64,000 nt of DNA from a phage, in the NCBI GenBank assembly GCA_024572335.1, contig GCA_024572335.1_3052.1; one strand, written 5' to 3'. A model generated the notes under the pieces. It searched no databases. It had not been told where the DNA came from and worked only from the letters and a program-made list of their open reading frames with translations. This document shows positions 1,512-63,522 of the stretch, piece after piece; position 1 is the stretch's first letter, and each line of letters opens with the position of its first letter. The translations under genes were made by a program, and so were the position numbers.

Positions 1512-2024
1512 TTAATCTAAGGTAATAAAGCCTTTTAATTCGGCGTGTGATTTGCGGAACATTACTTGATGTCCGCCAATGATAACTTGGTCATCTGGAA
1601 CTTCATAAATCGCAATGTACATTCCACGTTCTTTTAAGTCTTCACGCTCTTCTCGAGTGAACCATCTCATCATATCATATTCACTAGCGAAAGCAAAATG
1701 ATATAATGCAATAAACCACAATGGAATATAATTTTCAATTCGTGAATAATCTTTATTCCATTTAGTTTTAATAACATCATTAGCATTTTCAACTAATAAC
1801 TTATCATCGTGTGGAATAGGAATACTTTCATGGCTTTCATAATTATCGCTATGATGATGAAATGACGATGAATTAATACCGCAAAATTTTAGCCAAGTTC
1901 GAGTTTTCATAGAATCAAATCCACGATAAGGAGTTGATTGAACGCATAACTCTTGCCTAATTTTCATTATACCACTATCATCATTTAATGCGCTAAACGA
2001 TGATTCAACACGATAAATTTTCAT
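1512..2024 (-). CDS. Hypothetical protein
   Basis: Track ORF 1512..2063 begins at TTG inside a promoter; internal ATG at 2024 (MKIYRV) follows SD GAGGA. Confidence 0.5.
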   Translation of the reverse strand: MKIYRVESSFSALNDDSGIMKIRQELCVQSTPYRGFDSMKTRTWLKFCGINSSSFHHHSDNYESHESIPIPHDDKLLVENANDVIKTKWNKDYSRIENYIPLWFIALYHFAFASEYDMMRWFTREEREDLKERGMYIAIYEVPDDQVIIGGHQVMFRKSHAELKGFITLD

Positions 2025-2050
2025 TTTATTATCCTCAGTAGCTATGGTGT

Positions 2051-2081
2051 TATAATACCACAACTAACCGAGGAAGTAAAC
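2051..2081 (-). promoter_or_regulatory. Early-type promoter
   Basis: Minus strand GTTTAC, 18 nt, TATTAT; followed by SD GAGGA and ATG 2024. Confidence 0.5.
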
Positions 2082-2087
2082 AACTTT

Positions 2088-2771
2088 TTATCGTTTTGTT
2101 GGAAGAGACAGAGGATCGCACTCTTCCTCTGACGGAGCATCTTCAAGACCCATAGCATATCGCAAAGCATACTTCATCATCAGGATGTCTTTCGCACAAT
2201 CATGAATAGAATCATGCGCAACGAATCCATCTAAAGTTCCCTTTGGAAGAGGACATGTAGTCATATCACGAACAAGCAGAAGTGCTTCAATTCTGGTACG
2301 AATATCACGCTGATTCCAAAATTTACAAGGTTCTAACTTAAATGTATCAAGCTCATTCTCGGAAACACCATTAAGACGTTGAATATCGCGAATGAGATCA
2401 ACTAAAATTGGAAAATCAAACGACATTCCACGGCACCAGCCTTGAGATTTCCAAGGATCGATGTTATGTGCATTGATGTAATCATTAAATTTTGCAATAC
2501 CATCGATAGTGCTTACATCTTCATCTGATGGTGCAATATTTTTTCGAGCTTCAGGAGATTGATTTTTCCACCATTCGATAGTGCTTTTAGTAAAAAGACG
2601 ATGTCCTTTTTGACTTTTTAAGTCAAATTTAATTTTAATGCCACGTGAAACTAATTCATCGAATGTTTCAACAACTTCCGGGTTAGGGTCAAAAGCAATT
2701 ACAGCCAAATCAATAACAGCTGCTTTTTCACCGCTTCCCATCGTTTCAAAATCTATAATAAAATCAAACAT
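2088..2771 (-). CDS. dexA: Exonuclease A (DexA), DEDD-type 3'-5' exonuclease
   Basis: 227 aa, matching T4 DexA size; N-terminal FIIDFETMG acidic motif; position below dda. Confidence 0.8.
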   Translation of the reverse strand: MFDFIIDFETMGSGEKAAVIDLAVIAFDPNPEVVETFDELVSRGIKIKFDLKSQKGHRLFTKSTIEWWKNQSPEARKNIAPSDEDVSTIDGIAKFNDYINAHNIDPWKSQGWCRGMSFDFPILVDLIRDIQRLNGVSENELDTFKLEPCKFWNQRDIRTRIEALLLVRDMTTCPLPKGTLDGFVAHDSIHDCAKDILMMKYALRYAMGLEDAPSEEECDPLSLPTKR

Positions 2772-10330: not shown

Positions 10331-11670
<1,340 letters not shown>

Positions 11671-11695
11671 TATATCATCCTCAGCAATTTATTTT

Positions 11696-11725
11696 ATAAT
11701 ACCATAACAAGCTGAGAAAGTAAAC
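11696..11725 (-). promoter_or_regulatory. Early promoter upstream of the 186-aa ORF and dam
   Basis: GTTTAC, 18 nt, GTATTATA; SD GAGGA. Confidence 0.55.
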
Positions 11726-11769
11726 AAATTTATGAAATTTATGATAAATATTAATTTAAAGGAGGATAC

Positions 11770-11970
11770 ATGGTACAAAAATTAATGGCACTTGTTAATG
11801 CCATAAAAGGTAATAAGAAACGTATAGCTTTTACTATTTCTGCTATGATAGGAATTTTACTTTGGAATTTTGTTTTATCGCCAGTTGCTATTGCTCATGG
11901 CGTTAGTATTCCAGTAGTTACTCTTGATACATTCGTAGATTTAGCATTTGCTTTAGTTGGGTTAATTTAA
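11770..11970 (+). CDS. Small hydrophobic membrane protein, the only convincing plus-strand gene
   Basis: 66 aa; strong RBS AAAGGAGG 5 nt before ATG; predicted TM helix; stop codon overlaps gene 61 stop on the opposite strand. Confidence 0.5.
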   Translation: MVQKLMALVNAIKGNKKRIAFTISAMIGILLWNFVLSPVAIAHGVSIPVVTLDTFVDLAFALVGLI

Positions 11971-55159: not shown

Positions 55160-55521
55160 TACAAACTCTCAGTAAAGGTACGAGCGATAACGTCGCGCTG
55201 CTGTTCCGGAGTCAGAGAGTTAAAGCGAACTGCATATCCGGATACACGGATGGTCAGCTGCGGATATTTTTCCGGATGCTTAACTGCATCTTCCAGAGTT
55301 TCGCGACGCAGAACGTTAACGTTCAGGTGTTGACCACCTTCAATTTTAACTGTAGGCTGTTGCTCAATTTCAATTTCACGGGCATGCAAACCGTAGAAAA
55401 TTTCTGGGTCTACAAAAGAGTCCTCTTTAAAGGTTTTGGAGACAATAATTCGTGCTTGAATACCATCTTCAAAATAAATAGTACCTTTATGTGTGCCTTC
55501 AAGAATTTGATATGCTTTCAT
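55159..55521 (-). CDS. Autonomous glycyl radical cofactor-like protein (GrcA/YfiD-like)
   Basis: 120 aa; glycyl radical signature [11 protein letters not shown] near C-terminus. Confidence 0.6.
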
Positions 55522-62693: not shown

Positions 62694-62770
<77 letters not shown>

Positions 62771-62777
62771 TATTTTG

Positions 62778-62849
62778 CGGACGTGATAGGATTCGAACCT
62801 ATAACCAATCGCTTAACAGGCGATCGCTCTGCCATTGAGCTACACATCC
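62778..62849 (-). tRNA. tRNA-Asn (anticodon GUU)
   Basis: Acceptor GGATGTG/CACGTCC, D-stem GCTC/GAGC, anticodon stem ATCGC/GCGAT, loop CTGTTAA, T-loop TTCGAAT; CCA not encoded. Confidence 0.8.
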
Positions 62850-62853
62850 AAAT

Positions 62854-62940
62854 TGGTGGGGAGTGGTGGAGTCGAACCACCCGAGTCGCAATGACAATGA
62901 ATTTACAGTCCACACCGCTACCTCTACGGGATAACTCCCC
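62854..62940 (-). tRNA. tRNA-Tyr (anticodon GUA), long variable arm
   Basis: Acceptor GGGGAGT/ACTCCCC, anticodon loop CTGTAAA, variable arm TGTCATTGCGACTCG similar to E. coli tRNA-Tyr; CCA encoded. Confidence 0.75.
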
Positions 62941-62949
62941 AAATTAATT

Positions 62950-63024
62950 TGGTGGCCCTGGGTGGAATTGAACCACCATCTGGCGATTATGAGTCGCTTG
63001 CTTGAACCTTCCAGCTACAGGGCC
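62950..63024 (-). tRNA. tRNA-Ile (anticodon CAU, lysidine-type as in T4) or Met
   Basis: Acceptor GGCCCTG/CAGGGCC, anticodon loop CTCATAA, T-arm GGTGG-TTCAATT-CCACC; CCA encoded. Confidence 0.75.
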
Positions 63025-63025
63025 T

Positions 63026-63101
63026 TGGTGCTGATTAACGGAATCGAACCGCCGACCTTCTCATTACAAGTGAGTTGCTCTACCTACTGAGCTAAATCAG
63101 C
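63026..63101 (-). tRNA. tRNA-Thr (anticodon UGU)
   Basis: Acceptor GCTGATT, D-stem GCTC/GAGC, anticodon loop CTTGTAA, T-loop TTCGATT; CCA encoded. Confidence 0.85.
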
Positions 63102-63106
63102 AAAAC

Positions 63107-63196
63107 TGGCGGAGGCGATAGGATTTGAACCTATGAGTCGCCGGAGCGACTGCCGGTTTTCAAGACCGGTGCATTAAACCACTCTGCCACGCCTCC
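63107..63196 (-). tRNA. tRNA-Ser (anticodon UGA), long variable arm
   Basis: Acceptor GGAGGCG, anticodon stem CCGGT/ACCGG, loop CTTGAAA, long variable arm; CCA encoded. Confidence 0.85.
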
Positions 63197-63198
63197 AG

Positions 63199-63272
63199 TC
63201 TCCATACAAGGATTTGAACCTTGGACCTCCTGATCCCAAATCAGGCGCTCTACCAAACTGAGCTACACGGAG
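63199..63272 (-). tRNA. tRNA-Pro (anticodon UGG)
   Basis: Acceptor CTCCGTG, anticodon stem CCTGA/TCAGG, loop TTTGGGA, T-loop TTCAAAT; CCA not encoded. Confidence 0.85.
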
Positions 63273-63282
63273 TAAATTAAAT

Positions 63283-63356
<74 letters not shown>

Positions 63357-63361
63357 AAATT

Positions 63362-63448
63362 TGGTGCGAGAAGTGGGACTCGAACCCACAAGGAAATCAT
63401 TCCGCAGCATTTTAAGTGCTGTGCCTTTACCAATTTGACCATTCTCGC
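63362..63448 (-). tRNA. tRNA-Leu (anticodon UAA), long variable arm
   Basis: Acceptor GCGAGAA, anticodon stem CAGCA/TGCTG, loop CTTAAAA, long variable arm, T-loop TTCGAGT; CCA encoded. Confidence 0.85.
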
Positions 63449-63449
63449 G

Positions 63450-63522
63450 CTGGGAATAAAGGACTCGAACCTTTGCATCCTGGAATCAAAATCCAGTGCC
63501 TTACCAACTTGGCTAATTCCCA
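63450..63522 (-). tRNA. tRNA-Gln (anticodon UUG)
   Basis: Acceptor TGGGAAT/ATTCCCA, anticodon stem CTGGA/TCCAG, loop TTTTGAT; CCA not encoded; separated from tRNA-Leu by 1 nt. Confidence 0.85.

Follow-up and report, generated by a model that had tools for sequence, protein, structure and literature searches.

The small plus-strand ORF that faces the primase gene 61 in the 64,000 nucleotides of phage DNA analyzed here (the window) is, judged on its sequence and on those of its relatives, almost certainly a real protein-coding gene. We think it fairly likely that it is a genuine small gene of the Tevenvirinae whose effect is exerted by the protein it encodes, an accessory inner-membrane protein that crosses the membrane once, is made late and has a partner in the cell envelope. 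The gene is already catalogued: from the genomes of RB69 and RB32 onward it has been entered as a hypothetical ORF, by now in hundreds of genomes, it is grouped into a PHROG family, and some records name its product "putative transmembrane protein"; full-text literature searches found no paper that names or studies it.

The 1.4 kb around the ORF are 98–99% identical to many Tequatrovirus coliphages, with 504 matching records, and the surrounding genes are minus-strand genes of the T4 early region (41, dmd, 61.4, sp, 61.2, 61.1 and 61, then dam, 56 and soc). Minus-strand ORFs of at least 80 aa make up 85% of the window, and all ten of its tRNA genes lie on the same strand. When plus-strand ORFs of at least 50 aa lying outside these minus-strand ORFs were screened across the 64 kb, the small ORF was the sole one to combine an ATG with a Shine-Dalgarno sequence, so that by this screen there is no other credible plus-strand gene, as the initial annotation had proposed. 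Its reading of a near-perfect ribosome-binding site, and of a stop codon overlapping that of gene 61, is borne out as well: AAAGGAGG stands 4 nt ahead of the ATG, and two nucleotides are common to the two stop codons within a total overlap of 4 nt (Table 1). A GGAGG or GGAG precedes the ATG in all homologous loci compared, and the record of phage 107 annotates the homologous site as an RBS. The ORF translates as MVQKLMALVNAIKGNKKRIAFTISAMIGILLWNFVLSPVAIAHGVSIPVVTLDTFVDLAFALVGLI. The tRNA genes form a cluster at 62694..63522 (−) comprising Arg, Asn, Tyr, Met(CAT), Thr, Ser, Pro, Gly, Leu and Gln; T4 has eight tRNA genes, so the window phage has extra Asn, Tyr and CAT-anticodon tRNAs.

Table 1. 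The small ORF, its signals and its neighbors in the window, with homologues and promoter-box variants in related phages.
Feature	Position	Strand	Basis or remark
CDS of the 66-aa predicted small membrane protein	11770..11970	+	ATG start, TAA stop; ORF list
Shine-Dalgarno sequence AAAGGAGG	11758..11765	+	4 nt upstream of the ORF's ATG; read in the sequence
Late-promoter-like box GATAAATA	11743..11750	+	7/8 match to the T4 consensus TATAAATA (−13 to −6)
A/T-only stretch ttaatttaaa	11751..11760	+	directly downstream of the box
Gene 61 (DNA primase), 342 aa	11967..12995 including stop	−	convergent neighbor of the small ORF
TTAA palindrome carrying both stops	11967..11970	both	ORF TAA 11968..11970; gene 61 TAA 11969..11967
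Terminator-like hairpin AUGGCAUU-AACA-AGUGCCAU with U-rich tail	11775..11804	−	inside ORF codons 2–12, the hairpin itself at 11804..11785; pattern scan
Central helix, residues 16–42, containing the predicted single TM segment	11815..11895	+	AlphaFold2, pLDDT ~90 there
Conserved core W32-N33-F34...P38...A40...G44...P48.V50	11863..11919	+	alignments; kept in the most distant profile matches
Mosigvirus homologues (WFL6982; RB69ORF029w)		+	convergent with primase
Gaprivervirus homologues (VR26, EAWsc9)		+	convergent with primase
Kanagawavirus homologue (Q7622)		+	convergent with primase
Moonvirus homologue (Moon)		+	convergent with primase
Gelderlandvirus homologue (STP4-a)		+	convergent with primase
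Jiaodavirus homologue (KP1079)		+	convergent with primase
Box variant GATAAATA			window-type and T4-type Tequatrovirus arrangements
Box variant AATAAATA			gene 56-adjacent Tequatrovirus arrangement and Mosigvirus
Box variant CATAAATA			Gaprivervirus, Jiaodavirus, L018
Box variant TATAAATA			Kanagawavirus
Box variant ATTAAATA			Moon and STP4-a

The ORF is widespread among relatives of T4. A tblastn search with its protein matched 698 phage records, 686 of them at a coverage of at least 80%, and the ~503 records at or above 80% identity are in line with the 504 Tequatrovirus records that share the DNA. Phages G8 and ECML-123-2 have annotated hypothetical proteins that match the window protein at 100% identity, and the family as a whole comprises about 100 protein clusters, all of 41–74 aa and mostly of 65–69 aa. 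T4 itself carries the ORF intact at NC_000866 17738..17938 (+), inside a gap of 309 bp between dam and 61 that is unannotated in RefSeq; the ORF is annotated in newer T4 records and in most relatives, not in the T4 RefSeq. A partial match in JS10 (NC_012741) is likewise unannotated.

Plus-strand homologues convergent with primase are found in at least seven genera, namely Tequatrovirus and six others at 30–55% identity, so the convergence with primase described in the initial annotation is an arrangement that recurs across the Tevenvirinae. The other flank of the small ORF is variable, being occupied by a nuclease-like ORF and dam, by dam alone, by gene 56, by an NTP pyrophosphohydrolase or by a homing endonuclease. 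The 4-nt stop overlap is also present in WFL6982, RB69, VR26 (second copy), Moon and STP4-a, and absent from KP1079 and EAWsc9, where gaps of 18 nt and 118 nt separate the two genes. RB69ORF029w, a member of the same family in the same plus-strand position, has the same 4-nt overlap with gene 61, and there is no difference of substance between the window ORF and RB69ORF029w, RB32ORF030w or the PHROG 2024 family. VR26 (locus L005) has two tandem plus-strand paralogues, one of subtype A (see below) at 1995..2192 and one of subtype B at 2201..2401 that adjoins gene 61, and in EAWsc9 (locus L006) a second copy of the small-protein gene appears to have decayed at 2193..2310. Together these suggest an old duplication followed by differential loss among genera.

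Substitution patterns point to purifying selection on the encoded protein. Pairwise Nei-Gojobori dN/dS for the ORF is 0.10–0.22 within Tequatrovirus and 0.16 within Mosigvirus, and between genera synonymous sites are saturated (pS 0.6–0.8) at a pN of ~0.32. Variable sites are distributed over the three codon positions as 7/2/11, 6/0/11 and 13/3/10 in three genera, to be compared with 4/1/15 for the adjacent 300 nt of gene 61. Since the ORF overlaps no other frame beyond the 4-nt TTAA, this codon pattern reflects selection on the ORF's own protein.

The family is narrow and made up of small proteins only, as far as sequence comparison reaches. The ORF protein matches the PHROG 2024 profile with E = 8.1e-31, its residues 2–66 aligning to positions 1–65 of the 65 in the profile; this family, whose members include RB69ORF029w and RB32ORF030w, carries the category label "unknown function". 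Reciprocal profile searches returned only proteins of 33–74 aa, nearly all of 52–74 aa, with the W-N...P...G...P core, and a profile search of 1.84 billion representative proteins gave 17 matches of 33–70 aa (15 of the 17 at 52–70 aa), none of which links the family to a known one. A tblastn search with the distant match P0118 found nothing in the phage collection, and the family profile found no paralogue of the ORF among the six-frame ORFs of the window. Neither Pfam and NCBIfam scans of the ORF protein nor Pfam scans of 27 members gave a family match, a PDB sequence-profile search with the family yielded chance-level matches only (E of at least 0.3), and a Foldseek comparison of the AlphaFold2 model with viral structures retrieved family members only, one of them labeled "Holin" by its submitter. 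Type I toxins of the Ldr, Hok and Ibs kinds were considered and rejected, a single member of the 27 matching Ldr_toxin at a chance-level E = 0.1.

Alignments divide the family into three subtypes, A comprising Tequatrovirus, Mosigvirus and Gaprivervirus, B comprising Kanagawavirus, several Klebsiella and Enterobacter phages and the second tandem copy of VR26, and C comprising Moonvirus, Gelderlandvirus and Jiaodavirus. Across all three, no variation is seen at W32, N33, P38 or G44 and almost none at P48 and V50. The AlphaFold2 model, built on an alignment of 27 sequences, has a mean pLDDT of 80 and consists of helices at residues 2–14, 16–42 and 52–63 with a loop at 43–51; the 19-residue window of peak hydropathy covers residues 23–41. 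The description of the ORF as encoding a small hydrophobic membrane protein thus stands, for a gene that is conserved across genera and has one predicted transmembrane helix. A published TMHMM analysis likewise places one transmembrane segment at residues 21–41 of RB69ORF029w, with no signal peptide (PMC1524935, supplement).

Charge is unevenly distributed about this helix. A basic cluster of K13, K16, K17 and R18 lies on its N-terminal side, and the window protein has five Lys/Arg residues in the N-terminal flank and none in the C-terminal flank. The same holds across the three subtypes, where in six sequences the N-terminal flank has 4–6 Lys/Arg and the C-terminal flank 0–1 (1 only in KP1079), the latter flank being hydrophobic with a net charge of 0 to −2. 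By the positive-inside rule this excess places the N-terminus inside and the C-terminus outside, and we consider an N-in/C-out membrane protein likely from the model and the charge distribution; the C-terminal helix, being hydrophobic, might dip back into the membrane. With this topology the conserved core would occupy the periplasmic end of the helix together with the loop that follows, which suggests that a specific contact may be made there.

Expression of the ORF is likely to be driven by a late promoter, as the sequence upstream of it indicates. The box GATAAATA spans 27 to 20 nt upstream of the ATG, with 19 nt between, and deviates from the T4 consensus TATAAATA only at −13, where it has G for T; T4 late promoters need no −35 element besides such a box. 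Position −13 is described as "poorly conserved for most phages" (PMC1524935), and A replaces T there at 9 of the 50 T4 late sites given in PMC2988020, which also identifies the region that opens at T4 late promoters as the A/T-rich segment downstream of the box. The plus strand of the 64-kb window contains three NATAAATA sites and no perfect TATAAATA, and of these three only the one at 11743..11750 precedes a Shine-Dalgarno sequence and an ORF. The other two, at 55473 and 58014, lie inside minus-strand genes with no accompanying Shine-Dalgarno sequence or credible ORF; they may have arisen by chance or may mark where late antisense RNAs begin.

Comparison across genera adds to this picture. 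A NATAAATA occurs at −20 to −30 from the ATG in Tequatrovirus, Mosigvirus, Gaprivervirus, Kanagawavirus, Jiaodavirus and the IMG/VR locus L018, and it is conserved amid upstream sequences that are otherwise unrelated, including three different Tequatrovirus contexts; at −13 most genera are off consensus, with G, A or C. The record of phage Lutter annotates the box as a promoter. Against a late promoter speak this deviation at −13, the ATTAAATA found instead in Moon and STP4-a, and the HMM-derived RB69 list of PMC1524935, none of whose 31 late promoters lies upstream of RB69ORF029w. The only sigma-70-type candidate for the ORF is a weak 9/12 match at 11651..11678, which falls within a segment that is deleted in T4 and so cannot be a conserved promoter. 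T4 early and middle transcripts all run counterclockwise, late transcripts being of either polarity (PMC2988020), and since the plus strand is used by no early or middle transcript of T4 the ORF is likely to be expressed late. The window ORF resembles T4 late genes with TATAAATA promoters in the spacing of its box from the Shine-Dalgarno sequence and ATG and in the A/T stretch, and, like most of them, it lies on the plus (clockwise) strand; unlike them, it stands alone within an early/middle region and has G rather than T at −13.

The T4 deletion also bears on the left-hand neighbor of the ORF. Relative to window positions 11194..11741, T4 lacks 548 bp (at NC_000866 ~17707/17708), and the right edge of the deletion lies 1 nt to the left of the late-promoter-like box, which is spared. 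The deletion removes most of a 186-aa ORF, leaving an 84-nt 3' remnant with a 1-nt frameshift ahead of the small ORF, so that the "intergenic" DNA between dam and the small ORF of T4 is a gene remnant. In the window this 186-aa ORF occupies 11110..11670 (−), just upstream of dam, the single base 11110 being common to its stop and the dam start, and it resembles a PD-(D/E)XK nuclease of the restriction-endonuclease type. The residues D72...E85-x-K87 are invariant in seven homologues, Pfam gives sub-threshold matches to DpnII and BanI, and the AlphaFold2 model (pTM 0.79) finds its best full-length structural match in MunI (TM 0.59/0.56), followed by EcoRI, McrC, Bax1 and the nuclease domains of Can2/Card1. 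Its family is very narrow, with 10 protein clusters and a presence in ~146 of the 504 Tequatrovirus records. Together with the GATC methylase Dam, the 186-aa ORF resembles a restriction-modification cassette in a T4-type phage.

The alternative that survives best, though we regard it as distinctly unlikely, is that the selected function resides at the RNA level, in antisense control of gene 61, with the peptide secondary: polymerase collision, or duplex formation followed by RNase III cleavage, would shut off primase mRNA late or, in the reverse variant, the 3' UTR of gene 61 would silence the ORF early. The convergent adjacency to gene 61 speaks for such a role, being kept in every genus examined despite the variable other flank, as does the recurrence of the 4-nt stop overlap in Tequatrovirus, Mosigvirus, Gaprivervirus (VR26, second copy), Moonvirus and Gelderlandvirus. 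So does the likely terminator of Tequatrovirus gene 61, which lies inside the ORF and probably forms the 3' end of gene 61 transcripts. The 85-nt minus-strand segment that contains it has a minimum free energy of −8.9 kcal/mol in T4, −11.2 in the window and −13.2 in locus L009, the predicted structure being the hairpin alone in T4 and including extra pairs in the other two, and TransTermHP annotation of phage SA21RB marks the homologous site as a rho-independent terminator. Transcripts of gene 61 ending at this hairpin would have a 3' UTR complementary to nearly the whole ORF. A further point in favor is that a search from the ORF across the whole of gene 61 found no intrinsic terminator on the plus strand; a late transcript would accordingly read on into the primase gene, and it probably does extend there as antisense RNA. 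In Moon (locus L020) a terminator is annotated at 2732..2751 (+), just past the start of gene 61, and this would be the expected end of a late ORF transcript after it had crossed the primase gene in antisense. Transcription of both strands, at different times, is known for some T4 sites (PMC2988020); the present arrangement is alike in that the transcripts of the ORF and gene 61 are expected to overlap by at least ~190 nt, and differs in that its terminator arrangement is not conserved outside Tequatrovirus.

An RNA-level coupling between the ORF and gene 61, which the initial annotation had raised, is therefore possible on sequence grounds, but several observations weigh against its being what is selected. 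What is conserved is the amino-acid sequence, with synonymous sites saturated between genera and four residues invariant, and the strong Shine-Dalgarno sequence is conserved with it. A comparable minus-strand hairpin was sought in the other genera and not found, so the hairpin is specific to Tequatrovirus and not a feature of the family. The adjacency is looser in KP1079 and EAWsc9, with their gaps, and in VR26, where the second paralogue lies between, and the absence of intergenic DNA open to rearrangement can account for it. The two genes are, moreover, most likely active at different times, gene 61 early or middle and the ORF late. The early and middle promoters of T4 are largely off by the time late promoters fire, which would leave little for an antisense RNA to regulate. 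With selection acting on the protein, the hairpin limited to one genus, the adjacency relaxed and the timing likely different, a role of the RNA ranks second, and we regard the antisense extension into gene 61 as incidental, or of secondary importance at most.

Among specific functions for the protein, an Imm-like membrane protein for superinfection exclusion or immunity, which would block entry of secondary phage DNA, is very unlikely. Phage membrane proteins of similar size often have exclusion-type roles, and a small predicted inner-membrane protein with its conserved motif toward the periplasm fits that pattern, as do the T4 envelope proteins Imm and Sp, which are also small; sp lies ~2 kb from the small ORF in phage 107, T4 and KP1079. 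Against this, the family profile, run with --max against the six-frame ORFs of the window, which by the T4 map presumably includes sp and imm, gave a self-hit only, with the next best match at E = 0.1. The known exclusion genes of T4 are early or middle genes on the minus strand, whereas the window ORF lies on the opposite strand behind a late-type box and can be reached only by late transcription, so that its product would come after exclusion is already set up. The initial annotation had put the ORF forward as a candidate for superinfection exclusion; the lack of similarity to Imm or Sp does not favor that proposal, and the plus-strand orientation argues against early expression.

Its other proposal, a lysis-timing factor, fares no better, and a holin or other direct lysis effector is in our view extremely unlikely. 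The protein is small and probably late, at least one transmembrane domain, a criterion for holins, is predicted in it, and these traits are shared with T4 T and RI and with holins of classes I–III; "holin", "putative holin" and "holin family protein" also appear as labels in the EAWsc9, KP1079 and OE5505 records. However, Pfam holin HMMs match none of the 27 members, even at E = 5, and most records say hypothetical, in keeping with the "unknown function" label of PHROG 2024. Holins typically have a charged cytoplasmic tail, which is absent here, five of the six sequences having no basic residue in the C-terminal flank; nor is there the linkage to endolysin or spanin genes that marks phage holins, the neighbors being primase, the nuclease-like gene, dam or gene 56. 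T4 already has T, E, RI, RIII and the spanins to explain its lysis. Taken over both processes, any specific role in lysis or exclusion is doubtful at best. That the ORF is a chance, unexpressed reading frame in the 3' UTR of gene 61 is scarcely credible, for although the curated T4 reference annotation does without it, 30–55% protein identity is maintained across genera with the length kept at ~65 aa, dN/dS is well below 1 with second-codon-position changes depleted, and the Shine-Dalgarno sequence and the promoter-like box are both conserved.

We therefore return to a late, accessory membrane protein as the preferred reading, for which the following course of events can be envisaged. Late in infection, RNA polymerase bearing gp55, together with gp33 and the gp45 clamp, would start ~6 nt after GATAAATA, near 11756, giving the ORF a leader of ~14 nt that carries the Shine-Dalgarno sequence. 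The protein would then insert in the inner membrane with its N-terminus in the cytoplasm and its C-terminus in the periplasm, where the invariant W-N...P...G...P core at the end of the helix would contact a membrane partner, and from there it may act in some accessory late process of the cell envelope. The candidates that first come to mind are the control of lysis or of lysis inhibition and a way of dealing with superinfecting phage late on, and no test here points to either. We consider it unlikely that the ORF will prove to be an overlooked late component of the T-even envelope, such as a holin or antiholin partner that tunes lysis inhibition, or that its late transcript is an antisense RNA that switches off primase.

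A conserved gene under selection is thus missing from the reference annotation of T4, which is among the best-studied of viruses, and screens of T4 based on that annotation would have missed it. The gap in the T4 reference is possibly useful to know of, as is the comparative argument for a late promoter. Adding the ORF to the T4 gene list would make expression and knock-down datasets readable for it. As matters stand, the ORF is one more conserved hypothetical small membrane protein; if a role in lysis control, late exclusion or primase shut-off were true, it would supply a small missing piece of a classic system.
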